DNA of 64,000 nucleotides from an uncultured Gammaproteobacteria bacterium (GCA_964535515.1 CAZHTA010000005.1:13-64012), one strand, 5' to 3'. Counted from the stretch's first letter, positions 2,850 to 45,735 are shown. Made by a program: numbers and translations. Notes: a model not told the origin generated them from the letters alone.

Positions 2850-2859
2850 ATATCAAATA

Positions 2860-2888
2860 TTGACAGAAGTGAGTTTTTTTAGTATAGT
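2860..2888 (+). promoter_or_regulatory. sigma70-like promoter TTGACA-17-TATAGT driving GC-rich ORF
   Basis: ttgaca(2860-2865) 17-nt spacer tatagt(2883-2888); AAGGAGG RBS at 2950-2956 before ATG 2961. Confidence 0.55.
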
Positions 2889-2960
2889 GAGCTGTTCTAC
2901 CCGTGGGGATGGGTGGACATCACGCGACTGGAGTATATCCAGCGCTAGCAAGGAGGAGGC

Positions 2961-3896
2961 ATGAAACTCAGAGAGATTCTGGTGGTCGAAGGGCTTACCA
3001 GGAACATGGGCGAACTTCTCTCGTCGGTGGTCGAGGCCGTGTCGGCTATCGGCTACCTCGAGGGCATGCGGCTGGTCATCGAAGAGTACAAGCCGGCTGC
3101 TGCCAAGCGCCAGCCGCTGGATGGCGTAAACGTGTCGGAAGAGTCGGTCAGGGCCTTTCGCGCCTTTTCGGGTGCTATGACCGCGCTTGCCGAGGGATGC
3201 CACATTCCCGTGGTGCAGGCCCTGTACCTGCACGATGCGGCGAGTGGACTCAGCCGGGGCAACGGCAACCTGCCCGACCAGCAGGTTGAGCTGAATCGGC
3301 ACGCTCTGCTCGTTCTCGGTGGTGTCTCTAGCGTTCTGCGTGGGGACGACTGGTGGTGCGTCTACGAGAAAGTGATGGTCGGCCTCATGGAGGCCGGGCA
3401 CGTCGCTTTCAATGAAGACGTCTTCCGGTCGATCATCGAGTCCATGAAGAAGAACCACGCCAAGGATGCGGCTGGTCGCCAGGCTCATCTGGCCGAGCGG
3501 CTCGCCGAGCAGGATCGCCTAGACGAGGCGATCGAAGTGCTCGCGTCGGTGGAGGGCGACACGTACTCCGCTCCGAACCAGCGTGGGTATGCGCTCGGGC
3601 TCCTGGAGAGGTACAGAGCCGTCGCCGTTACTCGGCGTGGTACGGGCACCTCGCGTGAGCGTCGCGCTCCGTCTCGTCGCAAGAAGGGCAGCGGTGCGAC
3701 CAAGGAAGGCGATCCCGAGCCACCACCAATAATCCGTCATCGCGCTTGGTACGGCACGATTGGCGGTACGTTCATTAGTACTAGGAGGGATAACGTCGTG
3801 GTCCCCACCCACGACTTACTCCAAAAGAGCATCAAATTATTGGTGCTTTTTTGTTTGTTTTTTTTATTTAAAAATGGTATATTATTCCTACTATGA
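2961..3896 (+). CDS. hypothetical protein encoded in GC-rich foreign-like cassette; 3' end appears truncated and reads through into AT-rich backbone/terminator
   Basis: High GC3 codon bias in this frame, canonical SD+ATG; C-terminal 25 aa (LLQKSIKLLVLFCLFFLFKNGILFLL) are translated from AT-rich terminator/promoter sequence. Confidence 0.5.
   Translation: MKLREILVVEGLTRNMGELLSSVVEAVSAIGYLEGMRLVIEEYKPAAAKRQPLDGVNVSEESVRAFRAFSGAMTALAEGCHIPVVQALYLHDAASGLSRGNGNLPDQQVELNRHALLVLGGVSSVLRGDDWWCVYEKVMVGLMEAGHVAFNEDVFRSIIESMKKNHAKDAAGRQAHLAERLAEQDRLDEAIEVLASVEGDTYSAPNQRGYALGLLERYRAVAVTRRGTGTSRERRAPSRRKKGSGATKEGDPEPPPIIRHRAWYGTIGGTFISTRRDNVVVPTHDLLQKSIKLLVLFCLFFLFKNGILFLL
3826..3852 (+). terminator. Rho-independent terminator downstream of GC-rich cassette
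   Basis: agagcatcaa-attat-tggtgct hairpin (one G-U) followed by T-run. Confidence 0.6.
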
Positions 3897-4747
3897 AAAA
3901 ACTTTTAATTTTAGGTTACAAAGGAACTCTTGGTCAGGCTTTGGTGGTGGAGTTTAATTTGCCAGATTACGAGGTAGTTGGGTGGGATCGAGAAGAGGCA
4001 GATATTACATCTTTAGATTTGGAAGATAAAATTGTGGCACTAGCACCGCAGGTGATTATTAATGCCACCGGTTACAATGCGTTAGATAAGGCAGAAAGTG
4101 ATGTTCAAGCCAAAGAAGTTTGTTTTGCAATTAATTCTGAAGCACCTAAGCGACTAGCAGAGATTGCTAAAAAGTTAGACGCGGTATTTGTTAATTATTC
4201 TTCAGACTATGTTTTTAGGGGTGATAAGGAAGAGGGGTATGCTGAAGATGATCTACCAAATCCGATCAATGTCTATGGCGAGTCAAAATATTTGGGAGAA
4301 AAGAATGTTCAATCGGTTGGTGGCAAGTTTTACATTATTCGACCTTCTCGCATTTTTGGTAAACCGGGTATTAGCGAGATGAGCAAGAGAAGTTTTGTTG
4401 ATATTATGGTAAGTAAGAAAAACGAAACCGAAGTAAGGGTGGTTAATGAGGAAAAGGGTAGTCCAACGTATGCTCCGGATTTAGCAAATTTTACTAGGGC
4501 GTTAATTGAAGAAGAAAAACCGTTTGGTATTTATCACGGGTCTAATAGTGGTGCCTGTACTTGGTATGAATGGGCAACAGAGATTTTTAAGATTATTGGT
4601 GCATCACCCAAATTAATACCGATTCCTAGTAGCGAATATCCTCGTCCTACCAAACTTCCACAATTTTCTGAGTTGTTAAATACTAAAATGTCTTTGCAAA
4701 GGCCGTGGCAGGAAGCTTTAAAAGAGTATTTAAAAAATTCCACTTAA
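3893..4747 (+). CDS. rfbD: dTDP-4-dehydrorhamnose reductase
   Basis: RmlD-like N-terminus MKKLLILGYKGTLGQAL, YSSDYVF motif, 284 aa. Confidence 0.75.
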   Translation: MKKLLILGYKGTLGQALVVEFNLPDYEVVGWDREEADITSLDLEDKIVALAPQVIINATGYNALDKAESDVQAKEVCFAINSEAPKRLAEIAKKLDAVFVNYSSDYVFRGDKEEGYAEDDLPNPINVYGESKYLGEKNVQSVGGKFYIIRPSRIFGKPGISEMSKRSFVDIMVSKKNETEVRVVNEEKGSPTYAPDLANFTRALIEEEKPFGIYHGSNSGACTWYEWATEIFKIIGASPKLIPIPSSEYPRPTKLPQFSELLNTKMSLQRPWQEALKEYLKNST

Positions 4748-4762
4748 AGTGGAATTTTTTAG

Positions 4763-4835
4763 TCGGGCTGAGAGGAATCGAACCTCCGGCCTCATCGTCC
4801 CGAACGATGCGCGCTACCAACTGCGCTACAGCCCG
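4763..4835 (-). tRNA. tRNA-Pro (anticodon CGG)
   Basis: Manual cloverleaf fold on minus strand: 7-bp acceptor CGGGCUG/CAGCCCG, D-arm GCGC-AGUUGGUA-GCGC, anticodon loop UUCGGGA, T-arm GGAGG-UUCGAUU-CCUCU. Confidence 0.8.
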
Positions 4836-4840
4836 AATTG

Positions 4841-9533: not shown

Positions 9534-9865
9534 TACTAAAAAGTAAATTAAAAAAACAAAAAATCCCTTTGGTTAAGGAATTGTATGATGAATGGGCACC
9601 AGGAGGAGAAGTGGTGCCAGTGTTCGGACCGCGTCCGATTAATGAGCTAGGCCGGTTTTTCGCCCGCGCGCTAGACACTCAAACACTGACACCACGACTC
9701 CTCTGGTGGTGAGAGAAGAGACTGTGTGTGTAGAAGGGCTTTCCTTCAGGGGGATAACGTATGCGACCGTCATCCACTACTACACGCAGATCTTCCTTCT
9801 CTCAAGCGGGAGCATCTCGACGCGGTTTGGGCATGGGCCGTCTGCGCGTAGGAAGATCTCCCGAG

Positions 9866-9913
9866 TCTGGGAACATGGGGATTTGAACCCCATGAATTCG
9901 TCGATGTTCCCAG
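9866..9913 (-). ncRNA. tRNA-like minihelix (8-bp acceptor stem + 12-nt linker + T-arm GGGGUUCAAAUCCCC, no D or anticodon arm)
   Basis: Minus strand CUGGGAAC-AUCGACGAAUUC-AUGGGGUUCAAAUCCCCAU-GUUCCCAG-A folds as acceptor/T-arm coaxial stack. Confidence 0.3.
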
Positions 9914-9925
9914 GAAAGAATAAGG

Positions 9926-9999
9926 AGCGGGAGACTGGAATTGAACCAGTGGCCTCCACCCTAGCAGGATGGCACTCTGTTTCTCTGAGCTACTCCCGC
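9926..9999 (-). tRNA. atypical tRNA-like gene (anticodon GCU, short variable arm, D-loop lacking GG) - possibly pseudo-tRNA or non-canonical tRNA
   Basis: Manual fold: acceptor GCGGGAG/CUCCCGC, anticodon stem CCAUC/GGUGG loop CUGCUAG, T-arm ACUGG-UUCAAUU-CCAGU; D-loop AGAGAAACA unusual. Confidence 0.45.
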
Positions 10000-10071
10000 G
10001 AAAGTAGTTAAATACTATCAAATATATTAAAAATGTAAAGATTGTGTTGTGGATAAGTAAAATCAATTATT

Positions 10072-18957: not shown

Positions 18958-19013
18958 GTAACTTAGTTAAAAGAAAACCCACTCATATTACTATAAGTGG
19001 GTTTATATTTTTT

Positions 19014-19069
19014 AAAACCACCTCCCTTAAGCGACAATGTCTTATCATTTAAGGGAGTCGGGTGGTTTT
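19014..19069 (-). terminator. hairpin terminator downstream of GC-rich cassette 2
   Basis: aaaaccacctcccttaa ... ttaagggag-tcg-ggtggtttt imperfect inverted repeat followed (minus strand) by A/T run. Confidence 0.45.
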
Positions 19070-28917: not shown

Positions 28918-28935
28918 CAATTTAGTAAACAAAAA

Positions 28936-29806: not shown

Positions 29807-29808
29807 AT

Positions 29809-32800
29809 ATGCCAGATGAAGTAGAGGACAACCAAGAGTTGGCGGTTGAACAGGATGGTGCACCTATAGAAATATTTGAGGGTCCATTCACTAATGAGAC
29901 TGAAGTTGATTTTGAAAATTTAAGAGCTGGGGCTGAGGTTGCTGAAGAAACTGCTAGGCAAGCAGAAGATTTTGTTATACAAAATCAAGACAAACCAGAG
30001 TTTGTCGAAGAAGTGCAAGCGATGGTTGAAGTAAAGACTGAGGCCAAAGAAATCAAATCTGGGTTTTTGCGTGGGTTAGATAAGATTTTTGGTGGCGTAA
30101 AGGAGAAGCTTAAGGGAGGTTTAGAAAAATCAGTTAAGGTTGATGATGAAAAAGTTATTGCTAGTTTGCACGCGAAATTAAATAAACTTCAGGTTGCTTT
30201 GCTTACAAAGAAGACTGATTTTTTGAAAAAAGTTGCTAAAAAATTAGGGACGAAATATTATTCAATACCAAAAAAAGAAGAAGAAAAAGCAATGACGGAA
30301 TTTTCTTATGGCAAAGAAAGTGGGGATGAATTTTTGGAATTACTTGATTTACATAAAAAAGCAGAAAAAAGTGACTATAAAAAATGGGAAAAAGCGGAAG
30401 AAGTTCTTTTGAGGGTTGCCAGGGACTTGATTTACAGCGCTTTAAGAAAGGGAAATCTAGAAGCAGCGTTAAGATTGTATGACCGATTGCCTGATTTGTT
30501 GGGTCTTAGTGAGATTTCAGAGAGGATAGTAATGTTTGTAGATGATCAATTCAAAGAAGAATATGATAAAAATGAAGGATATTTTGATTCAGAGAAAGCT
30601 CGTTTTGAGAACAAAAGAAAAGCGCGGATAAATTTCTTTAAAGATAAATTAAAATTTCGTCCAGATTTACGATTTTCAACATTTTTTATTAATGATCCGT
30701 ATTATCGAGGAGGTGGATTGGAATGCGTTGATGATGCTCAGCTGGGTGTTTTTAAAGATATTATTATCAAAGGCAATCGTGATTGTATATTAGCAAAATT
30801 TTCACCAACTGAAAAAATGACCGAAGAGGAGGTTGACAGGTTGTTCGAAGCGTATAGGAGGTTTGATAAAAACAAAATATTAAATAATATTGATCGTTTA
30901 AAAAGCAGAGTTGAAAAGTTGACTGATGCGGAGAGAGATGATGTAATTTTGCCTTTAATCGAAAATGGTGCGTGTTTGAACAATCCGGGTTTTGAACAGT
31001 ATTTACGTTTTTTCCCACTGACTAAAGCACAGACACGAGAGTTTGTTCACAAATTTTGGGATTATTATGAACCGTCAGATAATAAAACTAAAGATGAAGA
31101 CAAAAGAAAATGTATTGAACATTTGTCAATTAATTTTCCACAGATCTTTTTATTTGATTCAAATTTGGAAAAGATGAGTAATGTTTTTGAGTGGCCGTTA
31201 ACGGCAATAGATCAAAAGAAAGTGATTAGATATTGTTCTGGCGGTTTAGATGAAAGAGGAAATCTTAATGGGGATATTGATAATTTAAAGATGGTTATTG
31301 ATCGTAACAAAGAAGACTGTTCAGGATTGGGGGATATAGAAAGAGAAAATGCGTTATTAACTTATGTAAATTTACACCGAAGTTTTGGTTCGATTGATTA
31401 TGAACGTTTGTTTGGCGCTCTAGATAAAGCATCAGATGATGTTAGGGGAAAAATAATTCTAGAACTTAAAACTAAAAGGGCTTTAGAGGTTGTAGTTTTA
31501 GGTTTTGAATTTTTAAAACCCGAAGAACAAAAAAGCTTTTTAAGTTCTGATATGTTGGATGCACGCAAGCTTTTGGGCGTGTTTTATAATGGTGATAGTA
31601 GTGTTGATGGTGTTATGTATATAATTAATGGTTTGCATTTGTCAAATACAGAAAAGAAAAATATATATAGCCATTTGTTTGGTGATCTTACGAGTATTGA
31701 TCAAATAAAGTTGCTTAATACTTTTTATAAATATACAAATTCTAAAAAAGAATTAGAAGATTATTTGTCAGCCAATATTTCTGGGGTGTTAGGAAATTTA
31801 GATTTACTCGGTTATTTATCAAGTATTGGTAATGGGATTTATCCGGATATTGATTCGTTAAGTGCTGAAGATAGAGATTTTTTGACGTTAGCGCAAAATT
31901 TTCGAGCTTCGAAAAATCAACGTGATCTTTGGACGAGAATTGATCATGATGGTATAAACAGAGTTGAATGTAATGAAGGAGAGGTTGTGGCCACAAAAAA
32001 GGCAGATAGATTTGAAAGTAGAGTTTTAGCAAAAATTTTAGATGAAATGGGGTTGTCCACAGTCGAAAGAGATAAGCTTATAAATACGTTGATCTCTAGC
32101 CCTATCAGTGTTAGTGAGAGGTGTTGTGGTAAGCTCTCGGAATATTCGTCGGCTGAATTTTTTGATATCACTTTATTATCACAAGATAAGGGTGGAATTT
32201 TAACAAATGAACAATTTAATAAAATGGTGGATGGATTGTTGGTAAGCAGGCCAGATACTGTTTATGAAATATATATTGAAATTGGTGCTACTGCAGAAGA
32301 GAAAAAGCGATTGGCATTGGCGTTAGTAGAACATAATCCAAAATATTTATTGTCTCTTCATTTAAAAGGCGGAGATGTTTTGGAATTGATTTCTTTTTTA
32401 CCTCATCAAAAACGTTTAGACGCGATTAAAGAAATGGAAGTCGAAGAGCTTGTGAGTATTTTAGGTCAAGGACAGGGAGTAGTTTTTGGCCAGTTTGATC
32501 AAAGCGAGAGAGGCGCGGTTGTAGACAAACTATCGAAAGACAAACCGGAATTTATTTATGTTCTATACGAGAGTGTAGGTGTAATTTCTTCGGAAGAAAA
32601 AAAACAATTAGCGGAATCTTTTTTAAAGGTTAATCCTGTATATTTATTTCAAAAATATGTTGAGGGTAGTGATGGGATGGGTATAATTTATGGTTTGGAA
32701 AATTTGGATGAGATAATAGATAAGGTTGCGGAGTTTGACCCAGCTTTGGTGTTTATACATCGCAAGTTTTTGAATCTTGATGAAAAAAGACGTTTAGAGT

Positions 32801-34938: not shown

Positions 34939-34948
34939 TTATTATTGT

Positions 34949-35353
34949 ATGAGCAGAAGAGAGTTTCCATCATATTTAAGGTTAGTACAACCAGATGAAG
35001 TACCTAGTACTAATCCTGATAGTTTGCCAGTTTCTAATTTTAGTTCGGTAGATATTTTAAATTTGCCCGATGATACAGTAAATGACATGTATAAAAGATA
35101 TTCTACTTTTCCGGTTGCATTTGATTTTTTAAATCGATTAAGTGATTGGGAATTAAAAAGAGGTTTGTCTAAAACAGATAAGGGGATATTGTTTGTTATG
35201 GCTATGACCGCACAGTCACTTAATAATACGGGTTTATTTAGTGCTTTGAGAGCTTTTATAGTTAAAGGTGAACCGCTTATAGAAAATAATCTAGTTGAAT
35301 TTGGTGGTAAAATTAAGGACTATTTATTAAATTTAAAAATTGAAAAAGAGTAA
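34949..35353 (+). CDS. hypothetical protein
   Basis: 134 aa ORF immediately after giant gene. Confidence 0.45.
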   Translation: MSRREFPSYLRLVQPDEVPSTNPDSLPVSNFSSVDILNLPDDTVNDMYKRYSTFPVAFDFLNRLSDWELKRGLSKTDKGILFVMAMTAQSLNNTGLFSALRAFIVKGEPLIENNLVEFGGKIKDYLLNLKIEKE

Positions 35354-35380
35354 TTATTTTAATATTTTATTATAAACCTT

Positions 35381-37318
35381 ATGGACGAAAATCAAATCCA
35401 ATCAAATACTTTGGTTAGTGAACCGGTTGTGGCAGAAGCTCCTCCCGTAGTTGTGATGCAGGATGTGCCGGTGGTTAAGAAAAAGAATGTTTTAAATTCT
35501 GCTCTTTTTCCGCTTTTAGCGTTTCTTTTGATTGGTTTGGTATATATGGCAGTTTATGCTTTTATAAAGCCCGTAGCTAAAGATATTGTTAACGAGACAA
35601 TCGCTAAAATATTTAAAAATTACGGGATGTATTTTGGTTGGGTTTTTGCTTTGTTGTCTTTGGTGATAATGTATGTTTTGTATTTAATTAAAAAAATAGT
35701 TAGATTAGGTAAATTTCAAATAACTAATCCGATTATTTTAATTGCATCACTTTTGCCTTGGTATTTTTTTGCTAAACAGTTGCTTTTTCATGAAAAACGT
35801 TATACGGATATTGCCCGAGGGATAATCACTTATGTTGGCTTGCCATTACTGTGGGTGGTATATATTGTGGCGGGCATAGCTTTAGTTTGGTTTGTTGTTC
35901 TGGCGATTGTGAAATTACTCAAAAGAAAAGATTTGGCAAATAAAGCGGCTTTAGTGTTGTTTGTTGTTTTTGCCCCGTTTGTTTTAACAGGTTGTGTTGG
36001 TGATCTTCAAGCAATGTTGTGTGATTTTTTACCTGATAGCGATCATTGTTTTCAAGGAGCAGCTGTCCAAGAAGGGGACGCAGATGGTTGTGAAAAAGTT
36101 TCGGGAGAGAAATTTAAGGATGTTGGCTCTAATCCACCACGTGACAAGTGTTATTTGCAGATTGCAGAAAATACCGGTGATTTGGAAGCTTGTAAAAAAA
36201 TTAAAGGTGGGCCAATGTCATATGATAAAGATGAATGTATTTTAAGCACCTCTTTGGCCTATGAAAATCCAGCGGGTTGTAAATTGTTGTCGGGAGCGAA
36301 TAAAACAAAATGTTTATCGGAGTTTGGCATGCGTACTACCTACGACAAAGTTTTGGAGGTAGACGACCAGATTCAAATTTTAAAAGATAGTTTAAAAAAT
36401 GGTTCAGATGCGGAAATGGAAAAGCAGTTAAAAGGTTTGGAAGAAAAACGAACTGACATGCTTGGGGTGATGACAAAAATCAATCGTACGGAATATGAAA
36501 AAATGAGTGATCCAACGAATCGAGAAATTATTGGTGATTTTGCTGTTGGTGATATTGATAGTGCTACTAAAGAAAAACTTTTAGCCTTTAATGCTTCGTT
36601 AAAGAAGCAGGGGCTAGCTTTGACCGCAAGTCAGTATGATTCTTTTAAAGAATACTATAAATTTGTGAATGATCCTGATAATGATATTGAGAAGATGAAT
36701 GATTCGGAGATTGTAAAGAATCGTTGGAATGAAAAAGTTGGTAATGTAGTTGATGCAATGAAATTTTGGAAAACTAATGATACCAAAGCTGAGGAAAGTG
36801 CTGATCAGCAATTACGTTTTTATCAACGCATGTTAGAGCGTCAGGCGGCTATTGCCAAAGGGATGAGTGATTTGCAACAGGATGTCGATAGGAATATGGA
36901 TATGGTAATTGAAGCAGGCAAAGACAAAGCCAAGGATATTTTGAAAGACAAGGTGATTGAGGGTTTGTTTGGCGAAATTACTGGTAAAACTGTTGGTATT
37001 ACTACAGCGGTATTAGGTGAAGCAATAGACACGGTTAAAGCCGAAGCCAAATCAGCTGAGTTTAGAGGCTTGGTAAATGCCTATAACTCTGGCATGTCTG
37101 AAGAAGTGGGTAAATTTGGCGGTGATGTTGAAAAGGCACATGCGGAAGTTATTAAGAAATTGATGGCTGATCCATATACATATGCAAGTGGCAATTCGTT
37201 TGCTAAGTATGGTAACTTAATAGAAAATAAAGATTGCGATGGTACTAATCCGCATTGTTTAAATAAAGAGGTATTTTGGAAGGCGATGAAAAAGTCGTAT
37301 AAATATCAACATCAATAG
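35381..37318 (+). CDS. multi-pass membrane protein with Cys-rich and coiled-coil extracytoplasmic region
   Basis: 645 aa, about 6 N-terminal hydrophobic helices, Cys-rich segment, Lys/Glu-rich C-terminal half. Confidence 0.55.
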   Translation: MDENQIQSNTLVSEPVVAEAPPVVVMQDVPVVKKKNVLNSALFPLLAFLLIGLVYMAVYAFIKPVAKDIVNETIAKIFKNYGMYFGWVFALLSLVIMYVLYLIKKIVRLGKFQITNPIILIASLLPWYFFAKQLLFHEKRYTDIARGIITYVGLPLLWVVYIVAGIALVWFVVLAIVKLLKRKDLANKAALVLFVVFAPFVLTGCVGDLQAMLCDFLPDSDHCFQGAAVQEGDADGCEKVSGEKFKDVGSNPPRDKCYLQIAENTGDLEACKKIKGGPMSYDKDECILSTSLAYENPAGCKLLSGANKTKCLSEFGMRTTYDKVLEVDDQIQILKDSLKNGSDAEMEKQLKGLEEKRTDMLGVMTKINRTEYEKMSDPTNREIIGDFAVGDIDSATKEKLLAFNASLKKQGLALTASQYDSFKEYYKFVNDPDNDIEKMNDSEIVKNRWNEKVGNVVDAMKFWKTNDTKAEESADQQLRFYQRMLERQAAIAKGMSDLQQDVDRNMDMVIEAGKDKAKDILKDKVIEGLFGEITGKTVGITTAVLGEAIDTVKAEAKSAEFRGLVNAYNSGMSEEVGKFGGDVEKAHAEVIKKLMADPYTYASGNSFAKYGNLIENKDCDGTNPHCLNKEVFWKAMKKSYKYQHQ

Positions 37319-37332
37319 AAAATTGAAATATT

Positions 37333-38034
37333 ATGAATAAAAAATATATAATATTTATTATGGTCATAGCTATTTTAATTGGTGTAGCATTACTTGTGTT
37401 AGTTTTTTCGATGATGGGATCAGATAAAGAAGTTACTAATACACCGGTAACAAAAGTAGAAAATTTTAGCGAACCTATTCCAGAACCTGTTGTGGAGCCT
37501 GTGGTTCCAGTGGTTGTTGCACCTGTTGTTTCGTCAACAAATTTAGTAATTAATGAAAATACAATGCCAGTTGTTAAAATAAAAACAAACAAAGGAGACA
37601 TTACGTTAGAACTTTTTTCTGAAGACGTGCCAAAGACGGTGGAGAATTTTATTACTTTAGCTAAAAAAGGTTTTTATGATGGTGTAATTTTTCATCGGGT
37701 AATCAGTGGTTTTATGATTCAAGGCGGTGATCCAACAGGTACGGGCACGGGTGGTCCAGGGTATCGGTTTGATGATGAATTGAATTCACAAACACCTTCA
37801 TACAAGCGTGGTTATGTGCGTGGTACTTTAGCAATGGCTAACGCCGGTCCAAATACTAATGGTAGCCAGTTTTTTATCATGCACAAAGACTACCCACTAC
37901 CTAATGCCTATACTATTTTTGGGCGGGTGACAAAGGGAATAGAAGTAGTTGATGCGATTGCGGCTGAAGCTGTTGATTCGTCCGATCGTCCGCTAGAAGA
38001 CGTGGTAATGACAAAGGTAGAGGTAAAGCTTTAA
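37333..38034 (+). CDS. ppiB: cyclophilin-type peptidyl-prolyl cis-trans isomerase with N-terminal membrane anchor
   Basis: FHRVISGFMIQGGDP...GPNTNGSQFFI cyclophilin signature; 233 aa. Confidence 0.85.
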   Translation: MNKKYIIFIMVIAILIGVALLVLVFSMMGSDKEVTNTPVTKVENFSEPIPEPVVEPVVPVVVAPVVSSTNLVINENTMPVVKIKTNKGDITLELFSEDVPKTVENFITLAKKGFYDGVIFHRVISGFMIQGGDPTGTGTGGPGYRFDDELNSQTPSYKRGYVRGTLAMANAGPNTNGSQFFIMHKDYPLPNAYTIFGRVTKGIEVVDAIAAEAVDSSDRPLEDVVMTKVEVKL

Positions 38035-38036
38035 AT

Positions 38037-38064
38037 TTGACAGGGTTTTTGTTGGTGGTATAAT
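38037..38064 (+). promoter_or_regulatory. strong sigma70-like promoter TTGACA-16-TATAAT
   Basis: ttgaca(38037-42) gggtttttgttggtgg tataat(38059-64). Confidence 0.6.
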
Positions 38065-38121
38065 GTGAGTATGCTTAATAAAAAGTATCAATTTTTAAAG
38101 GCACACAAAAGAAAGAAATCA

Positions 38122-38149
38122 GAATTTCCCTGTTGGGAAATTTTTTTTA
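38122..38149 (+). terminator. terminator hairpin 1 in leader region
   Basis: aatttccc-tgtt-gggaaatt + T8. Confidence 0.65.
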
Positions 38150-38171
38150 TAACCAACAATATTAATTCACT

Positions 38172-38199
38172 AAATCCTCCGTTTCCCGGAGGATTTTTT
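38172..38199 (+). terminator. terminator hairpin 2 in leader region
   Basis: aaatcctccg-tttccc-ggaggat + T6. Confidence 0.65.
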
Positions 38200-38239
38200 A
38201 AATTTTAAAATTATGACATAAAATATCAATCAATAATTT

Positions 38240-38264
38240 GACGGCTAATGGCCGTCTGTTTTTT
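38240..38264 (+). terminator. terminator hairpin 3 in leader region
   Basis: gacggc-taat-ggccgtc + tgtttttt. Confidence 0.6.
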
Positions 38265-38288
38265 AGAAAATAATTTAATTAAAAAACT

Positions 38289-39293
38289 ATGGATACATCA
38301 GTTATTAAATTAACCGATCGAGTTTTGCAAGGCGCACGAGAATATTTGATTCAGAATGGTTATACGGAAGTCGTAACACCGCGCATTGTTAAGGCATCAG
38401 GTGCTTGTGAGAATATCAACACTTTGTTTGAGGTTTCATCAGATAAGGATGATCGTTGGTTTGATGGTCACAAAAGTTATTTGGCACAAACTGGTCAGTT
38501 GTATCTTGAGGCTTTAGTGCCAAAGTTAGGTTGTGTATATTGTGTTGGTCCTAGTTTTCGTGCGGAGCCGAAGGTAGACAAAAGGCATTTAACGGAGTTT
38601 TTGATGATTGAGATTGAACATCCAGGTGGTTTTGATCGGTTATTAGAATATATCGAAGGCATGCTTTATCATGTAGCGCAAATAGTTGCAAATGACCCAA
38701 AGGCAGTTGACGTCTATGGTATTACAGATGAAACTATTGTCCGATTAGCTTCGTGCACTAAAGTGTTTACTAAACTTACCTATGACCAAGCAATTAATAA
38801 GTTAAAGAGTTTGGGCGAAAAAATTGAATGGGGCGATGATATATCTTCAGCACAAGAGAGTGTCTTAGTATGGGAGAATAAAAATCAGCCGTTGTTTATT
38901 ACCAGATTTCCTGATCCGATGTGGAAGTTCGATAAGGATATTGAAGTGGAAAAATTTTTTAACATGTTGCCCGACCCGGAAAATCCGGGTCGTGTTTTAT
39001 CTGCTGATTTAATCTTGCCTTTTGGTGGGGAAGCAGTAGGTTCAGCAGCACGAGCGCATGAGGCCGATGTTCTGCGGGCAAGATTGGAGAACTCAAGAAT
39101 GTTTAAGCGTTTAGTGGAACGAGGGGGAAGCATTGAAGACTTTGAGTGGTATATTAACCAAGTTGAAACGAACGGTGCTGTACCACACGCAGGTTGTGGT
39201 TTTGGTATGGCCAGAGTAATACAATGGTTAAAAGGGGAGACTGATATTCGTAAGGCTGTGGCGTTTCCTTCTAACAAAGAGATTTTAGTATAG
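38289..39293 (+). CDS. class II aminoacyl-tRNA synthetase catalytic-core homolog lacking anticodon-binding domain (AsnA-like aspartate-ammonia ligase, archaeal AS-AR type)
   Basis: Motif 2-like GPSFRAEP, motif 3-like GCGFGMARVIQWL; 334 aa with no N-terminal OB fold. Confidence 0.55.
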   Translation: MDTSVIKLTDRVLQGAREYLIQNGYTEVVTPRIVKASGACENINTLFEVSSDKDDRWFDGHKSYLAQTGQLYLEALVPKLGCVYCVGPSFRAEPKVDKRHLTEFLMIEIEHPGGFDRLLEYIEGMLYHVAQIVANDPKAVDVYGITDETIVRLASCTKVFTKLTYDQAINKLKSLGEKIEWGDDISSAQESVLVWENKNQPLFITRFPDPMWKFDKDIEVEKFFNMLPDPENPGRVLSADLILPFGGEAVGSAARAHEADVLRARLENSRMFKRLVERGGSIEDFEWYINQVETNGAVPHAGCGFGMARVIQWLKGETDIRKAVAFPSNKEILV

Positions 39294-39342
39294 TATTAGT
39301 TGGCGGTTATTAGTTTGGGTTAAATGTTAGGGTAGTTATAGG

Positions 39343-39375
39343 AAAAAATCCGCTTGTTTTAAAGCGGATTTTTTG
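39343..39375 (+). terminator. Rho-independent terminator
   Basis: aaaaaatccgctt-gtttta-aagcggatttttt. Confidence 0.7.
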
Positions 39376-39404
39376 TTAATATTACTACGTTAATATATTT
39401 TTAT

Positions 39405-41336
39405 ATGCGTTTTAGATTATTATCATTTTTAGGCTTGTTGTTTGTTTTTGGTGGGTTGGTATTTGTTGGGCCAGTTAAGGTGGTTGAAAATCGTAGTTAT
39501 TTTTATGATGGTATAGATGTTGAAGCGGTGGTGAATCAAGATACTACGGTAGATATTAGAGAAAGGCAATCGTACGTTTTTGTAGGCGAATATCATAAGG
39601 GATGGAGAAGTATTCCTTTGCGTAAAATTGATGCGATTACCAATATTCAGGTTTTAGATGGTGTGACCAATCAACCGTTGACGTATTCTTGGCGTACTTT
39701 AGAAAAAACTGATCCAGCAAGTTGGGGTAAATATACCTACCGTCGTAACGGTGGTAATGTGGAGATTGAATGGTATTACAATGCCAAAGACGAACAAAAG
39801 ACCTGGATAATTGAATACAAAGCGCATGGTGCATTAGAGTTTTTAAAAGATAATGATAGGTTCTATTGGAATTTATTTACTGATTATGAAGTACCAGTAG
39901 AAGCGGCGAGTGTTAAAGTATATTTACCAGAAAATGCTAATTTGTCAGTCGCGGGTTGGGAAATATATCCATCAGGGGGCGTGGCGGCAGTTTCTTCATT
40001 TGACAGTAGTCAGGGTTATTTTTATGCTTCTGGCGAAAATTTTCCTCCTCAGGGCATGTTGACAGTGAATCTTTTCTGGCCAAAGGGAGCGGTAAACCGT
40101 TCAGCATATTGGTCAGATTTTTGGAAATTAAAGTATGGTTATATTATCTCAATATTTTTATTAATATTAACTTTTTCAATTGCTATTATCCGCTGGTTAA
40201 TGGTTGAACGTTTAGTTAAAGGGCGAGGTACAATTGTGCCGCAGTATGAACCACCAAAAGGAATGTCTCCGGCGGAAATGCAAGTAGTGTTAAAAGAGAG
40301 TGTGAATAGTCGAGCGCTGGCAGCGACGATTATAGACTTGGCAGTGAGGGGCTATGTAAAAATTGAAGAAGAGCCACCAACTGCTTGGCATAAAATGTTG
40401 GCGAAAGCAACGGTTGGTCTGTTTGCTGCTATTTTTATCTTACTTTTTATTGGTATTTGGTATTTTGGATCAGGAAATTCTATTAGTTTGTTTTTTGTTG
40501 CAGTAGCAGCGCTTATTTGTTTTATCATATTGCAGAAGTTTAAAACCGGACGTTACGGGCGTGATTATCGAATTGTTAAAACTGAAAAGGATAATAGTGG
40601 TTTAAAGGATTATGAGAAGAAATATTTGGATGCACTTTTTTGGTATGGAAGTGAATATTTTTCTACTCGCGAAATGCGTTCGTCTTCTAGTTCTTCTCGA
40701 GCGGCGGCGATGCAAAAAAATATTTTAGAATTGCGAGAAGATATTTACAAATCAGTTGACCCGGATAACAAGTTTTATGAAGTCTCACCGTTAAAAGAAA
40801 AAATCAAATGGGGTGTTTGGATTTTGTCTGGGATTATTATTGTTATTTGTTTGTCTGCGGGAGGAAGTTGGTTTTTTAGTTTAGCACAATATTGGTACAT
40901 TGTTTTTTCTTTAGTAATATTTGGTTCTTGTTTATTTGTATATTTTAAATACGAAGCTCGTTTAAGTCAGGCGGGTAGAGAGCTTAAAGAAGAGATCTTA
41001 GGCTTTAAAATGTATTTGTATTCTGCCGAACGGTATCGTTTGCAAAATCTTACGCCCGATATTTTCGAGAAGTATTTACCATACGCAATGGTGTTTAAGA
41101 TCGAAAAACAGTGGGCAAAGACTTTTGTTTCGAGAGACGTTAGCCAGCCTTCTTGGTATTATACTGGGTATTATGGTTCGGATTCCTCGGTACCGTCAGT
41201 AGCCACATTTTCGGCTACTGCCTTTAGCGCTAGTTTTGTTTCATCTTTTCCCGCCTCCTTTTCAGGTTGGTCGGGGGGGGGGTGGGGGGGGTTTTGGGGG
41301 GGGGGGGGGGGGGGTGGGGGAGGCGGTGCAAGTTAG
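39405..41336 (+). CDS. DUF2207-like membrane protein with Gly-rich C-terminus
   Basis: Signal/TM, extracytoplasmic beta-rich N-domain, several TMs, C-terminal GGGWGGFWGGGGGG tail as seen in DUF2207 family; poly-G DNA tract 41270-41330. Confidence 0.6.
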   Translation: MRFRLLSFLGLLFVFGGLVFVGPVKVVENRSYFYDGIDVEAVVNQDTTVDIRERQSYVFVGEYHKGWRSIPLRKIDAITNIQVLDGVTNQPLTYSWRTLEKTDPASWGKYTYRRNGGNVEIEWYYNAKDEQKTWIIEYKAHGALEFLKDNDRFYWNLFTDYEVPVEAASVKVYLPENANLSVAGWEIYPSGGVAAVSSFDSSQGYFYASGENFPPQGMLTVNLFWPKGAVNRSAYWSDFWKLKYGYIISIFLLILTFSIAIIRWLMVERLVKGRGTIVPQYEPPKGMSPAEMQVVLKESVNSRALAATIIDLAVRGYVKIEEEPPTAWHKMLAKATVGLFAAIFILLFIGIWYFGSGNSISLFFVAVAALICFIILQKFKTGRYGRDYRIVKTEKDNSGLKDYEKKYLDALFWYGSEYFSTREMRSSSSSSRAAAMQKNILELREDIYKSVDPDNKFYEVSPLKEKIKWGVWILSGIIIVICLSAGGSWFFSLAQYWYIVFSLVIFGSCLFVYFKYEARLSQAGRELKEEILGFKMYLYSAERYRLQNLTPDIFEKYLPYAMVFKIEKQWAKTFVSRDVSQPSWYYTGYYGSDSSVPSVATFSATAFSASFVSSFPASFSGWSGGGWGGFWGGGGGGGGGGAS

Positions 41337-41397: not shown

Positions 41398-41468
41398 GCC
41401 CTCTTTGTTCAGTGGTAGAACAGTGGTATCGTAAACCACAAACATCAGTTCGATTCTGATAGAGGGCT
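41398..41468 (+). tRNA. tRNA-Thr (anticodon CGU)
   Basis: Manual fold: acceptor GCCCUCU/AGAGGGC, D-arm GUUC-AGUGGUA-GAAC, anticodon loop AUCGUAA, T-arm AUCAG-UUCGAUU-CUGAU. Confidence 0.8.
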
Positions 41469-41582
41469 CATTTAAAATTTCGCTTAATAGCGGAGTTTTT
41501 TATTTTCCACAAACCCTTGCTTTTTTTGTTGTTTATGATAGGGTTATTAAAGAAATTTGGGAATATATTTCCCTTAATTTGC

Positions 41583-41602: not shown

Positions 41603-41689
41603 GTTGACCGATATTTGACAATTCATTACGGAAACGGAAGAGGGAGTTAGTGCTAGTGCTGGAGCGAAAACTGTTTGGGGGAGGAATAG

Positions 41690-42943
41690 ATGTTGATTCC
41701 ACGCGAACGCATGCTCGAAAGGTTCATGCGCTACGTGCGCATGGACACCCAGTCGGTTGAGGGAGCGGAGTGCTACCCCTCGACCGAGAAGCAGAAGACC
41801 TTGCTGCGGCTGTTGGTCGACGAACTGAAGGCGCTGGGCCTCGCCGATGCGGCCATGGACGAGTGGGGCTACGTCTTCGCGACGTTGCCGTCGAACTTGC
41901 CGGCCGACCAGGCCGCCAAGTTGCCGGCCATCGGTTTCTTGGCGCACGTCGACACGTCGCCGGAAACGAGCGGCACGGACGTGAAGCCGGTGATCTGGAG
42001 GCACTACGATGCGGGCACCAACCTCGTGTTGCCCGGCGACCATTCCCAGGTGATCACCTGGGACGGTAACCCCGTGCTGCAGCGATACGTCGGGCAGGAC
42101 ATCATCACCAGCGACGGCACCACCCTGCTGAGCGCGGATGATAAGGCGGGCATCGCCGAAATCATGACCGCCATCGAGGTGCTGTTGGCGAATCCTGACA
42201 TCCCGCGCCCCACCATCCGTGTGGCGTTCACGCCCGACGAAGAGGTCGGTATGGGTACTGCCCATTTCGATCTCGCGAAGTTCGGCGTGCAGGCCGCCTA
42301 TACCCTCGACGGCGGCGAAATCGGTGAGGTTGAATGCGAGACATTCAACGCTTACCTCGCGACCTTCACGGTCGTCGGCAACAACTGCCACCCCGGCTAC
42401 GCCAAGGGGAAGATGGTCAACGCCATTCGTCCCATGGCAGCTATCGTCGAGGCCTTGTCCGACCAGCCTGCACCCGAGACCACCGAGGGTCGCCAGGCTT
42501 ACCTGCACCCGTACGATCTCAAGGGTGAAGTTGCCAAGGCTACGCTCAAGGTGCTCATCCGCAGCTTCGATGAAGCAGGTATCGAGTCGCGCAAGATGTT
42601 CCTCGCGGGCGTGCGCGATCGCGTAGCGGCGGCGTTCCCTCAGGCGAACATCGTTCTCGAGATGGTCGAGCAGTACAAGAACATGAAGGTCTACGTGGAT
42701 CAGGATCCGCGTGTCATGGCCTTCGCCACGGAAGCCATCATCAAGGCTGGTCTCCAGCCGATCACACGCGAGATCCGCGGCGGTACGGATGGCTCGAAGT
42801 TGTCCGAGAAAGGACTGCCTTGCCCCAACCTGTTCGCGGGTGGGCACAACTTCCACTCGAAGTTGGAGTTCATCCCGGTGCAGTCTATGGAGAAGGCCGT
42901 GGAGGTCGTGGTCTACCTGGTCGAGCGCTGGGCCAACGCCTGA
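41690..42943 (+). CDS. pepT: peptidase T (tripeptide aminopeptidase, M20B family) in GC-rich foreign-like cassette 5
   Basis: Strong collinear similarity to E. coli PepT recalled from memory (HVDTSP, GADDKAGIAEIM, AFTPDEEVG, IRGGTDG, GLPCPNLF, GGHNFH); high GC3; GGGGGAGG RBS. Confidence 0.8.
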   Translation: MLIPRERMLERFMRYVRMDTQSVEGAECYPSTEKQKTLLRLLVDELKALGLADAAMDEWGYVFATLPSNLPADQAAKLPAIGFLAHVDTSPETSGTDVKPVIWRHYDAGTNLVLPGDHSQVITWDGNPVLQRYVGQDIITSDGTTLLSADDKAGIAEIMTAIEVLLANPDIPRPTIRVAFTPDEEVGMGTAHFDLAKFGVQAAYTLDGGEIGEVECETFNAYLATFTVVGNNCHPGYAKGKMVNAIRPMAAIVEALSDQPAPETTEGRQAYLHPYDLKGEVAKATLKVLIRSFDEAGIESRKMFLAGVRDRVAAAFPQANIVLEMVEQYKNMKVYVDQDPRVMAFATEAIIKAGLQPITREIRGGTDGSKLSEKGLPCPNLFAGGHNFHSKLEFIPVQSMEKAVEVVVYLVERWANA

Positions 42944-43198
42944 TCATCCCGTCTCAGCCGTTTCTGGCTAAACACTTACCACATTGGAGGGAAATGGTGT
43001 GGCACAGTGCGATTCATTCGCCAAGCTATTCCCCTCTAAATGAAGATTTTGATTTAAGTCTTTATTTAGAGGATAGTTTGGAAATATTAATAAGACCATT
43101 TGTATAAATTACGAGTGGTTTTTTATTTATACACATCCTTTGGTTTGGTAGGTTTTCTACTTCTCCTTTTTTGTGATATAATTTAAATACTATCGCTT

Positions 43199-43882: not shown

Positions 43883-44791
43883 ATGATATCATTTTGGCGA
43901 GTGTTAAAATTTGCGTTTCAAGATTTAGGCCGTAATTTAGGCATGTCTTTCATGACAGTTTTTATTTTAGTCTTGATGTTGTTGTCTTTTAATACTCTCT
44001 GGTCAGTGGAAATCTTAACTAAACAGGCGGTTAGCACAGTTAAGGATCAAATTAATGTTAGTATATATTTTTCGGCTGATGCTAAAGATAAAGAGGTGGA
44101 GGATACCAAAAGTTATCTTTCTGGTTTCCCTGAAGTAGTTCAGGTTGATTTGCGTAGTCGTGAAGAAGTGTTGCAGCTTTTTAAAGATCGCCATAGTTTA
44201 AGTAAGGAAGTTTTGCAGGCATTAGAAGAGTTGGGTGGTAATCCTTTTGGTCCAACTGTAATTGTAAAAACAAAAGAACCGGGGGATTACAAAAAGATTG
44301 TAGAGGCACTGAACGCTCCAGAGTACAAAGATTTGATTGAAGCCAAAAGTTTTGATGAGCATGCAGATGCGATTGATAAGATTCAGAATATTACTAACCG
44401 AATCGAAGGGGCGGGGATGGGTTTAACTATTTTGTTTGCTCTAATTTCATTTTTAGTTATCTTTAACACTGTGAGGGTGGCAATTAACAGCCAGCGGTTT
44501 GAGATTGGAATCAAGCGGTTAGTGGGGGCAAGTAATTGGTTTATTCGTGGCCCGTATTTGATCGTTTCAGTAGTCTTAACTTTGGTTAGTGTGGGTATTA
44601 CGGCAATTATCCTTAAATTTGCTTTAAAATGGGTGGATCACTATTTATCCGTGGTCTTTTCTGGTGGATTCTCCTTGACAAATTATTACAATTCGCATAT
44701 TCTGTACGTGTTTGGCGTGCAGATTATAGTGGTCCTGGTTTTGACAGTGGCTTCTAGTATCCTAGCAATGCGCCGACAGTTGAAGATATAA
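43883..44791 (+). CDS. ftsX: cell-division permease FtsX
   Basis: N-terminal TM, periplasmic domain, C-terminal 3 TM FtsX domain; 302 aa. Confidence 0.75.
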   Translation: MISFWRVLKFAFQDLGRNLGMSFMTVFILVLMLLSFNTLWSVEILTKQAVSTVKDQINVSIYFSADAKDKEVEDTKSYLSGFPEVVQVDLRSREEVLQLFKDRHSLSKEVLQALEELGGNPFGPTVIVKTKEPGDYKKIVEALNAPEYKDLIEAKSFDEHADAIDKIQNITNRIEGAGMGLTILFALISFLVIFNTVRVAINSQRFEIGIKRLVGASNWFIRGPYLIVSVVLTLVSVGITAIILKFALKWVDHYLSVVFSGGFSLTNYYNSHILYVFGVQIIVVLVLTVASSILAMRRQLKI

Positions 44792-44810
44792 AATGCAATT
44801 TTATAAATAT

Positions 44811-44881
44811 TCGGGGATCGTCTAATGGCAGGACAGCGCCCTTTGAAGGCGCTTATCTTGGTTCGAATCCAAGTCCCCGAA
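44811..44881 (+). tRNA. tRNA-Gln (anticodon UUG)
   Basis: Manual fold: acceptor UCGGGGA/UCCCCGA, short D-stem, anticodon stem GCGCC/GGCGC loop CUUUGAA, T-arm CUUGG-UUCGAAU-CCAAG. Confidence 0.7.
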
Positions 44882-44883
44882 CT

Positions 44884-45144
44884 ATGTGGTTACTTTTCTT
44901 CGTAGGTATAGTAGAAATGGTGATTATTACCGCCTGGACTAAGGTGGTTTCTGATACCAAGGTTATAGCGAGTGGAGTTATAACTGTGATTAATATCATT
45001 ATTTGGTATTATGTTTTGCGTATATTCGTAGAGAATATTGAAAATATTTACTTTTTAGTTGTTTATATTGCTGGTTGTGCTTTAGGCACCATGGTTACCA
45101 CTTATTATTACAAACAGCAAGAAAAAAAGAATGTTATAAAATAA
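44884..45144 (+). CDS. small hydrophobic membrane protein
   Basis: 86 aa, two to three predicted TM segments; starts 3 nt after tRNA-Gln so expression uncertain. Confidence 0.35.
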   Translation: MWLLFFVGIVEMVIITAWTKVVSDTKVIASGVITVINIIIWYYVLRIFVENIENIYFLVVYIAGCALGTMVTTYYYKQQEKKNVIK

Positions 45145-45331
45145 TAGCTTAACCAAGCTGTTATTTTTTTATACCTGAATGGGATATTGTGATTATTACA
45201 GTCTCTGTTTAAACAAAAAATCACTTTATAATAAGTGGTTTGATGTTTGTTTAAATGAATCTGTGTGGAACCGGCGCGCCTATCCACACAGAGGCGGAAG
45301 AAGTGCGCCGGGTCCTAGGCCTTGTACGTCG

Positions 45332-45586
45332 TCACGCGGTCTTCTGCTCGGGGTAGTACCCCGTGTCGAACATCGCGTCGATGATGTCCGCCGGCACCAC
45401 GTCCTCCATGCGGATGAACGGTCCCGGCGGTGGGAGGTAGATTCCTCGCTTCCTCTCGAATCCAACAGCCAGGAGGAGGCTGCGGAATTCGTCGCATGCG
45501 GGCACGGGCACCGCCATGTCGTTGACATCGACTGCGATTGCGCCGATAGGATCGTTCGGTTCGAAGAGGTTCGTGGCGTCGTCCAT
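45332..45586 (-). CDS. hypothetical small acidic protein in GC-rich foreign-like cassette 6
   Basis: 84 aa from MDDATNLFEP; high GC3; TGGAGG RBS 6 nt upstream; hairpin ctgtgtgga...ccacacag just after stop. Confidence 0.45.
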   Translation of the reverse strand: MDDATNLFEPNDPIGAIAVDVNDMAVPVPACDEFRSLLLAVGFERKRGIYLPPPGPFIRMEDVVPADIIDAMFDTGYYPEQKTA

Positions 45587-45735
45587 GACACCCTCCAAAA
45601 AAGTTACTAATAGTAGACTGTCATATTTTATCAACAAAGTCAATATTTAGTCTAATAATTTTATTGTTTTCCATGGTGTGGAATGGTGTAAGTAAGGTTG
45701 CTTTAAACCTTGTTTTTTGTTAAAATATTAATACT

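Follow-up and report, generated by a model that had tools for sequence, protein, structure and literature searches.

Putative moron-like, GC-rich single-gene units in a 64-kb segment of a low-GC Candidatus Magasanikbacteria chromosome

Composition and anatomy of the units

We analyzed a 64,000-nt stretch of the metagenomic contig CAZHTA010000005.1 (positions 13-64012; the whole stretch is called the window, and its own gene copies are designated W in comparisons), in which seven short GC-rich units, C1 – C6 and C3b, are embedded in an AT-rich backbone. Relative contigs and loci retrieved for comparison carry L-numbers. The window has a GC content of 38.5%, and the GC-rich blocks were located by log-odds segmentation (maximal-scoring segments), which delimited 2900-3813 (C1, 62.6% GC), 19053-19551 (C2, 61.5%), 23519-23986 (C3, 62.6%), 29010-29523 (C4, 63.6%), 41699-42960 (C5, 62.4%) and 45271-45596 (C6, 63.2%), together with a smaller segment at 24122-24365 (C3b, 52.5%). 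The cassette units are 59-64% GC, against about 37-38% in their surroundings. The original prediction, which was made from the sequence alone, had described six cassettes set off by sharp discontinuities in composition. Segmentation placed segments of 61.5-63.6% GC at all six places, but the count rose to seven because the third block (23520-24350) comprises both C3 and C3b.

The open reading frames (ORFs) of the units have a GC content at third codon positions (GC3) of 0.67-0.91, compared to 0.27-0.38 for backbone genes, in agreement with the strong GC3 bias that had been claimed. They display the pattern GC1 > GC2 << GC3 across the three codon positions, which is the signature of true coding sequence with a GC-rich background. 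Of the leucine codons, CTC and CTG account for 76% in cassettes versus 5% in backbone genes, and TTA for 0% versus 40%; AAG stands at 88% versus 33%. The idea that high GC3 reflects the codon bias of highly expressed genes was dropped, the maximum GC3 measured in the backbone being 0.38. All units are oriented opposite to, or independently of, their neighbours. In each, the GC-rich stretch begins about 10-20 nt from the predicted -10 element, spans both untranslated regions (UTRs) and stops at the terminator, and among unrelated cassettes the 3'UTRs are rich in C and poor in G, with CCCCAC or CCACC as recurrent motifs.

C1 (2857-3896, plus strand) consists of a promoter, TTGACA-17-TATAGT, at 2860-2888, a GC-rich 5'UTR at 2889-2960, a coding sequence (CDS) at 2961-3896 and a terminator at 3822-3853. 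C2 (18972-19680, minus) encodes a protein of 141 amino acids (aa) with a conserved N-terminal CxC...H motif (CDS 19157-19582), preceded by a weak promoter (TTGAAC) and an AGGAGG Shine-Dalgarno sequence and followed by a C-rich 3'UTR (19053-19156) and two terminator hairpins at about 19014-19070 and 18975-19004. C3 (23425-24040, minus) encodes a 122-aa zinc-ribbon-like protein (CDS 23602-23970) with a weak match to the Pfam family CPxCG_zf (E=0.0012); it carries ATATTGACA at 24028-24036, a C-rich 3'UTR at 23519-23601 and a long-loop hairpin with a T-run at about 23443-23512. An AT-rich spacer holding the C3 promoter and the C3b terminator separates it from C3b (24062-24400, minus), which has a 45-aa CDS at 24203-24340, a promoter-like TTGTCA-17-TACTAT at 24370-24398 and a 3' hairpin with a T-run at about 24063-24140. 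C4 (28925-29572, minus) encodes 116 aa (CDS 29133-29483) behind the promoter TTGACA-17-TAATAT (29541-29569) and a 5'UTR hairpin, and is followed by a long structured 3'UTR and a terminator (28932-28962) that abuts tRNA-Gly. C5 (41600-43125, plus) is the pepT unit, with a 417-aa CDS at 41690-42943, TTGACA at 41615-41620 without a good -10 element, a GGAGG Shine-Dalgarno sequence and a terminator at 43092-43122. C6 (45215-45655, minus) encodes 84 aa (CDS 45332-45586), with ATATTGACT at 45638-45646, a GGAGG Shine-Dalgarno sequence and an AT-rich terminator hairpin at about 45218-45245.

Each unit had been credited with a TTGACA promoter, a Shine-Dalgarno sequence and a terminator, and these claims held in part. 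Exact TTGACA lies upstream of C1, C3, C4 and C5; C6, C3b and C2 have the -35-like variants TTGACT, TTGTCA and TTGAAC. In a consensus scan of -35 and -10 elements, only C1 (11/12), C4 (10/12), C3b and C6 matched at 9 or more of 12 positions, and promoter-like matches overall were not clearly above the shuffled expectation in the AT-rich DNA of the window. The 8-mer ATATTGAC, often in the form ATATTGAC(A/T), occurs eight times versus 2.35 expected, a count reached by none of 100 shuffles, and four of the eight occurrences are at cassette promoters; TTGACAA showed no enrichment (18 matches versus 16.9 expected). A strong GGAGG stands 4-5 nt before the ATG in C1, C2, C4, C5 and C6 and is weak in C3 and C3b. 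The terminator scan called C1, C2, C4 and C5, while C3, C3b and C6 have AT-rich or long-loop hairpins seen by eye only. Judged by consensus matches, the arrangement of a single gene with its own promoter and terminator is thus strong for C1 and C4, moderate for C3b and C6, and present in C2, C3 and C5 through a -35-like hexamer only. C4 and C6 each stand back-to-back with a similar divergent backbone promoter; the two, which face away from C4 (29579-29616) and C6 (45698-45735), are 76% identical and share TTGC...TAAAATATTAAT.CT.

The backbone and its tRNA-linked hot spots

The Pfam content of the backbone includes RmlB, RmlC, RmlD, a PilB-like ATPase, DnaG, a MiaB-like radical-SAM protein, a Mur ligase and translin, in addition to peptidyl-prolyl isomerases (PPIases), FtsE/FtsX, a class II aminoacyl-tRNA synthetase-like protein and transporters. 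In a scan with one genome per species, the best matches of the Mur ligase were to metagenome-assembled genomes of Candidatus Magasanikbacteria and Patescibacteria. The closest relative, L034 (CAZHYJ010000004.1), has 80-92% protein identity over syntenic genes. The backbone is a chromosome of Candidatus Magasanikbacteria, within the candidate phyla radiation (CPR; Patescibacteria).

For five units (C3, C3b, C4, C5 and C6), the nearest tRNA gene is no more than about 450 bp away. tRNA-Lys(UUU) (24527-24600, minus) flanks the gap of C3 and C3b, tRNA-Gly(CCC) (28847-28918, plus) forms the left edge of a hypervariable gap holding C4, tRNA-Thr(CGU) (41398-41469, plus) is directly upstream of the PepT unit and tRNA-Gln(UUG) (44811-44882, plus) forms the left edge of a variable gap holding C6. 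Of the other two units, C1 is inside the rml cell-envelope sugar locus and C2 is between a radical-SAM gene and a large surface-protein gene. The order PPIase – tRNA-Gly(CCC) – tRNA-Thr(CGU) – FtsE is kept in 22 related loci, where the gap ranges from 261 bp (the two tRNAs alone) to 6 kb; in the window it measures 14.4 kb and contains C4, a 12-kb AT-rich block and PepT. Likewise, FtsX – tRNA-Gln – methyltransferase is kept in 15 loci with a gap of 236-5762 bp. The proposal that the tRNAs (CCC, CGU, CGG) were co-acquired to decode cassette codons was rejected, as they occupy the same places in 22 relatives whatever the cargo.

L034 preserves the order translin – Mur ligase – ... – PPIase – tRNA-Gly – tRNA-Thr – FtsE – FtsX – tRNA-Gln – methyltransferase and carries other GC-rich single genes in the same gaps, namely a 259-aa NTP-transferase-like gene after tRNA-Gly and a 79-aa gene after tRNA-Gln with the promoter ATTGACA...TAGTAT; a further 88-aa GC-rich gene lies upstream with an ATATTGACT promoter. 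L095, from a Logan assembly, is related to the window to a similar degree (PPIase 84%, FtsE 94% identity). It harbors a C4 homologue (56% aa identity; 62-70% GC versus about 38%) at the same site beside tRNA-Gly, which shares its ATATTGACAAATT promoter and 5'UTR hairpin with C4 and has a near-identical distal 3'UTR. The presence of homologous cassettes in related low-GC genomes, which had been named as an argument for genuine biology, is documented for C4 in L095 and, as described below, for the C1 family at rml.

The 12-kb block (29525-41336), located between tRNA-Gly/C4 and tRNA-Thr, belongs to the same hypervariable hot spot and is not GC-rich. It encodes ORFs of 1709 and 645 aa without a Pfam match, a cyclophilin, a 334-aa class II aminoacyl-tRNA synthetase-like protein and a DUF2207 protein. 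The block is absent from L034, and L095 has there only a DUF2207 gene of 40% identity.

Homologues of the unit proteins

The statement that only the pepT cassette has a recognisable product agreed with our Pfam and NCBIfam scans. The six other proteins matched no Pfam, NCBIfam, PHROG or PADLOC family, save for the weak zinc-ribbon signal of C3, and the cassettes gave no match in Rfam. The six hypothetical proteins, concatenated as the query of a word-indexed search, likewise gave no match. An exhaustive HMMER search of 1.84 billion representatives, however, recovered families for C1 (about 30 representatives), C2, C4 and C6, and one distant homologue, P0158, for C3; the homologues overturned the idea of a synthetic sequence that the empty word-indexed search had raised. 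C3b had no homologue in the HMMER search, and its coding status is for that reason the least certain of the seven units.

The homologues of these ORFan proteins come from metagenomic contigs, with no annotated genome among them, and wherever the surrounding DNA was retrieved, they form comparable islets within contigs of low GC. In L096, for example, the homologue of C6 is equipped with a TTGACA promoter and a terminator of its own. In IMG/VR, no relatives of the C1 or C2 family were found. An AlphaFold2 model of C2 (pLDDT 86) had no structural neighbour in a PDB subset or among the viral proteins of BFVD. By their features, the C2 and C3 proteins carry Cys/His motifs and C1 is a TPR-like scaffold in an envelope-sugar locus.

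C1 in the rml locus

The conserved core of C1 extends to about position 3650 (230 aa), is TPR-like and conforms to an alpha-solenoid fold of paired helices. The GC block contains no stop codon, and the ORF runs through the terminator to a TGA that overlaps the ATG of rmlD (ATGA, 3893-3896). This tail forms part of the public gene call (P0121, 311 aa), and most family members are about 80 codons shorter; the CDS past about 3650 is probably read-through of the 3'UTR.

Homologues of C1 are found between rmlC and rmlD in L085 and L089-L093, representing at least six lineages, and directly after rmlB-rmlC in L087. In 11 metagenome loci from JGI and ENA, the C1 homologue is the sole GC-rich island in every case (55-61% versus 41-46% GC). 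Between L090 and L091 the identities are 96% for rmlB, 87% for rmlC, 70% for C1 and 67% for rmlD; between L085 and L087 they are 92%, 83% and 62% for rmlB, rmlC and C1, and in all other pairs 68-81%, 60-79% and 38-48%. The pairwise identity of C1 thus tracks its rml flanks, which indicates that C1 was inherited together with the rml locus. Even in the closest pair, only 36-41% of four-fold degenerate sites are identical, which means that they are essentially saturated, yet the GC3 of C1 is 0.60-0.77 in every lineage while that of the neighbouring rml genes is 0.28-0.47. Because C1 is a positional orthologue that co-diverges with its flanks and remains GC-rich although its synonymous sites are saturated, these comparisons indicate a long-term resident rather than a recent transfer.

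A foreign signature should have decayed over such divergence, and the composition of C1 is therefore either selected or renewed by the repeated replacement of alleles out of a GC-rich pool. Identity falls off steeply between rmlB on the one hand and C1 and rmlD on the other, much as at the edge of a replacement island of the glycan type. Clusters of the O-antigen (rfb) type are known for persistently atypical GC. C1 is similar in its location in a sugar-nucleotide locus, in the long persistence of its composition and in that C1 and rmlD are far more divergent than rmlB (70% and 67% versus 96% between L090 and L091); it differs in that C1 alone is atypical, not the whole cluster, and in the reversed sign, GC-rich in an AT-rich genome.

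Some members of the family were seen outside this context. L082/L083 (1-2177) is a 2.2-kb metagenome contig made up of three GC-rich genes in tandem; a TTGACA-type promoter and a terminator accompany every gene, and the middle one is a C1 homologue outside the rml context. Two tandem C1-family paralogues adjoin a PilB-like gene in L084 (9900-11161; also in L086). The first is truncated or degraded (166 aa), and the second, 65% identical to the C1 of the window, runs off the contig end. L084, L086 and L088 are contigs that end at cassettes.

Structured UTRs of C1 and C4

Two hairpins bracket the C1 message. The 5'UTR hairpin (2897-2916, plus) has a GGGG loop (GUGGGG with the closing weak pairs), and the 3' hairpin (3795-3815, plus), located just before the terminator, has a 7-bp stem, GUCGUGG/CCACGAC, and a 7-nt loop, UCCCCAC, that is complementary to GUGGGG of the 5' loop. 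The 3' loop YCCCCAC is constant in W, L083 and L084 while the stem changes from GUCGUGG/CCACGAC in W to GUUGUAG/CUACAAC in L083 and GCUGCUG/CAGCAGC in L084, so that four of the seven pairs change on both sides with 100% of alignment cells paired. The stems of the 5' hairpin also differ among W, L083 and copy 1 of L084 with the GGGG loop kept, and copy 2 of L084 has the stem UUCGUCC/GGACGAA around GUGGG. Over both hairpins of the three-sequence alignment, 97.8% of cells are paired and six of 15 pairs change on both sides; this covariation was reached by none of 500 shuffles and by no slid register. With three sequences, the covariation is suggestive rather than conclusive, and the loop complementarity points to a putative 5'-3' loop-loop contact. 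The pair is a candidate for a new cis-regulatory RNA pair.

Fold-back pairing of 5' and 3' ends is a feature of hok-type mRNAs, and viral RNAs have 5'/3' kissing-loop translation elements. By analogy, and for the C1 UTRs only, both have complementary mRNA-end elements conserved through compensatory change. The C1 product, unlike that of hok-type mRNAs, is a 230-aa TPR-like protein and no small toxin, no antisense RNA is evident, and the loop-loop interaction is putative.

The distal 3'UTR of C4 (about 130 nt; 28925-29060 on the minus strand of the window, 3374-3495 in L095) is 87-91% identical between W and L095, compared to 66% for the CDS. Its fold has a z-score of -10.5 against shuffles, with compensatory change visible in the long hairpin. 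This element, situated between C4 and tRNA-Gly, might be a small RNA in its own right instead of just the 3'UTR of C4. C4 is probably a long-term resident. The conserved, structured UTRs of C1 and C4 suggest post-transcriptional control of mRNA stability or translation, and such structures may contribute to keeping the transcript GC-rich.

PepT and its origin

C5 matches the peptidase T models NF003976 (516 bits versus a cut-off of 255) and TIGR01882 (417 versus 286) and the Pfam domains Peptidase_M20 and M20_dimer, and on these family models it appears to be a bona fide PepT (M20B tripeptidase). Its nearest homologues are 75-78% identical in amino acids, with values of 75% for L080 and 77% for L097; L081 is at 68%. 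These three contigs, the ones retrieved, are 70-72% GC (L097, 70.5%). L080 and L081 share the synteny M23 peptidase – HIT – .. – PepT – HSP20 – FAD synthase, of which L097 shows the PepT-HSP20 part. Identity to the donor-type contigs at the nucleotide level is 77% and confined to the CDS, and the GC3 of pepT is 0.83 in the window versus 0.98 in L080 and L081, consistent with partial amelioration. The comparison shows a genuine transfer between phyla, one that is no longer brand new but has not been fully ameliorated. An Actinobacteria- or Deinococcus-like donor, as had been suggested, was not borne out; the nearest named matches are from candidate phyla of the FCB group (56-61%).

The run with the C4 homologue L095 (SRR22388057) and the run with L097, whose PepT is closest to that of the window (SRR22387882), are neighbouring accessions. 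As the accession numbers adjoin, the CPR lineage and the PepT donor-type lineage may share a habitat.

Interpretation

We consider it probable that the seven units are natural, moron-like accessory-gene islets, probably monocistronic, in flexible hot spots of the Magasanikbacteria chromosome. An AT-rich, sigma-70-like promoter of local type would drive a GC-rich predicted transcript (5'UTR, CDS and 3'UTR) that closes at an intrinsic terminator, and each gene, judging from its predicted start and end, would be transcribed alone and independently of its neighbours, as phage morons are. The intergenic gaps are hot spots of DNA gain, loss and replacement. The composition marks a gene pool distinct from that of the backbone, and PepT was captured from a bacterium of about 70% GC. 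Since no integrase, att repeat or target-site duplication was found, we infer that exchange proceeds by recombination in the conserved flanks.

Horizontal acquisition, one of the explanations offered originally, is supported for PepT and plausible at the hypervariable tRNA-linked gaps, but the qualification 'recent' is wrong for C1 and probably wrong for C4. The premise that self-contained units would be unexpected in natural horizontal gene transfer is not supported either, since a single gene with its own promoter and terminator, deviating GC and presence or absence between syntenic relatives is the defining architecture of the phage moron (PMC3594210). The islets share each of these features. 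They differ from morons in their location, between housekeeping genes of a bacterial chromosome and not in a (pro)phage; in that no phage families or viral contigs were found for them (PHROG; IMG/VR for C1 and C2); in that their deviation is toward much higher GC; and in that one islet family is an ancient resident.

Flexible genomic islands provide a second comparison, being conserved tRNA-adjacent hypervariable sites that hold from nothing to many kilobases, with cargo mostly of unknown function (PMC10872708), and horizontal gene transfer and islands are known in Patescibacteria generally (PMC12455944). The sites in the window and in the 15-22 related loci are alike in being conserved, tRNA-adjacent and hypervariable. 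Unlike tRNA-linked additive islands and tycheposons, they have no direct repeats of tRNA 3' ends and no tyrosine recombinase among the scanned ORFs, and the islet cargo consists of single genes of sharply different composition. The islets also recall integron cassettes, which are likewise small, mostly carry one ORF of unknown function and bear a 3' palindromic element; the islets, however, are dispersed over 43 kb and not arrayed, each has an apparent promoter of its own, and no IntI, attI or shared attC-like site was found for them. In kind, the islets are a variant of known morons and flexible genomic islets, and the genuine puzzle is that C1, and probably C4, has stayed GC-rich, along with a conserved UTR architecture.

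Several results weigh against reading the units as moron-like islets. The promoter calls are consensus matches that are weak for C2, C3 and C5, for which only a -35-like hexamer was found. The ends of the seven tRNAs (last 20 or 30 nt and first 20 nt, allowing up to 3 or 6 mismatches) do not recur elsewhere in the window, and the junctions, a check proposed originally, show no target-site duplications beyond low-complexity AT runs. No recombinase or integrase domain was detected by Pfam in about 30 backbone and island ORFs, several large ORFs among them being without any Pfam match. A GC-rich genome as donor of the ORFan families was not found, and the families are not uniformly GC-rich, as GC3 is 0.34 for the C2 homologue in L094 and 0.44 for the C6 homologue in L096, with GC1 still high. 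The GC-richness of C1 across lineages with saturated four-fold sites is not predicted by simple transfer followed by amelioration. The AT-rich homologues of C2 and C6, for their part, fit families that entered AT-rich genomes and were ameliorated to a varying degree. In the absence of duplications, tRNA-end repeats, recombinase domains in the scanned ORFs and any repeat family common to the units, insertion of the integrase or transposon type was rejected.

A possible but doubtful alternative is that selection acting on the transcript, and not foreign origin, explains the maintained GC-richness. The genes would then form a class of mRNAs that are insulated by structure, stable or under special regulation, in which a high GC content, UTR structure and pairing of the 5' and 3' loops would guard against AU-directed RNases, or tune translation via codons rare in the host. 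Selection would account for the match between the GC-rich stretch and the predicted transcript, from about 10-20 nt past the -10 element to the terminator with both UTRs included, and for C1 orthologues that stay GC-rich despite saturated synonymous divergence and co-divergence with their flanks. The conserved, covarying hairpins with complementary loops, the C4 distal 3'UTR that is more conserved than the CDS (with its fold z of -10.5), the use of codons that are rare in the backbone and the recurrence of CCCCAC/CCACC in the 3'UTRs of unrelated cassettes also favour selection. PepT, on the other hand, clearly came from a GC-rich donor, C2 and C6 homologues function in AT-rich form, and allele replacement from a GC-rich pool could mimic persistence.

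In its extended form, which we regard as unlikely, Magasanikbacteria and related CPR bacteria would maintain GC-rich, single-gene transcripts as a dedicated class of their own, with a composition that selection, not history, preserves. ORFan proteins such as C1 in the rml locus and C4 beside tRNA-Gly would then be expressed from structurally insulated mRNAs, in which the body is GC-rich, the 3'UTR is C-rich and complementary hairpin loops at the 5' and 3' ends circularise the message. Such mRNAs would differ from the AT-rich bulk of the transcriptome in how they are stabilised or translated, and the tRNA-linked hot spots would exchange members of the class.

An origin of the units as cargo or remains of a mobile GC-rich element (plasmid, phage or cassette array) that spreads among Magasanikbacteria and repeatedly reseeds the same sites appears distinctly improbable. 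The three tandem GC-rich cassettes of L082/L083, each with a TTGACA promoter, and the two tandem C1 paralogues of L084 away from the rml locus would suit such an element, as would the frequent ending of contigs at cassettes (L084, L086, L088) and the turnover of hot-spot content between relatives that are 80-94% identical in backbone proteins. Against it, IMG/VR yielded no member of the C1 or C2 family, the cassette proteins had no meaningful match in PHROGs or PADLOC, C2 had no structural neighbour among viral proteins, neither a recombinase nor a shared recombination site was found, and C1 co-diverges with its chromosomal flanks.

A chimeric assembly, in which pieces of GC-rich genomes would have been joined into a CPR contig, had also been proposed, and the sharp composition breaks and the origin of the window from a single NCBI metagenome contig of 64,764 bp are compatible with it. 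We reject this option as extremely unlikely, since the same composite structure of AT-rich promoter, GC-rich 5'UTR-CDS-3'UTR and AT-rich terminator stands beside the same backbone genes in independent JGI, ENA and Logan assemblies. The junctions recur in L095 (C4), in L083 (promoter, UTR and terminator of C1) and in L085 and L089-L093 (rmlC-C1-rmlD), and all seven inserts start after a promoter-like AT-rich site, end at a hairpin with a T-run and hold intact ORFs. PepT, with nucleotide homology of 77% in the CDS only, would therefore not derive from a co-assembled contemporary genome.

The engineered insertion of expression cassettes, which the superficial regularity of the promoter-RBS (ribosome-binding site)-ORF-terminator layout had brought to mind, is of negligible probability and was rejected, as unrelated environmental metagenomes contain the same families and UTRs with protein identities of 40-57%, the parts vary in promoter, spacing and terminator instead of following a standard, and no vector or marker sequences or shared repeats were found. 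The suspicion of artefact or engineering is thereby lifted from a public CPR genome.

If the units are indeed moron-like islets, ultra-small, streamlined Patescibacteria would carry moron-like accessory genes at tRNA-linked and glycan-locus hot spots, with cargo drawn partly from very GC-rich neighbours. The C1 family, still 55-63% GC in genomes of 38-46% GC through saturating divergence, contradicts the usual expectation of amelioration and offers a concrete, testable case in which selection, or another local force, would shape the base composition of an individual transcript.

Other features of the window

Two further GC peaks are not cassettes. One is a poly-G tract of about 80 nt (41250-41329, 78.8% GC) within an ORF; it forms the 3' end of the DUF2207 ORF (39405-41336), encodes a poly-Gly tail and may be slippage-prone or an assembly or sequencing oddity. 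The other, at 9594-10000, comprises tRNA-Ser and a non-coding stretch. The non-coding stretch (9560-9925, minus; about 330 nt, about 56% GC) lies directly downstream of tRNA-Ser(GCU), starts with a tRNA-like acceptor/T-arm minihelix (9869-9911) and ends with a T-run near 9560, and contains the interleaved complementary segments AGATCTTCC/GGAAGATCT and CTACGCGCAG/CTGCGTGTAG. It matched no Rfam family at threshold (best, mascRNA-like, E=0.05) and nothing in the related loci compared. A structured RNA that has so far gone unrecognised could lie here, for instance a tmRNA-like gene that is divergent or permuted. Lastly, a 1041-aa CARDB-domain ORF (19751-22876) contains a tandem-like internal duplication of 204 nt at 20372-21055, with 81% identity and a spacing of 480 nt.

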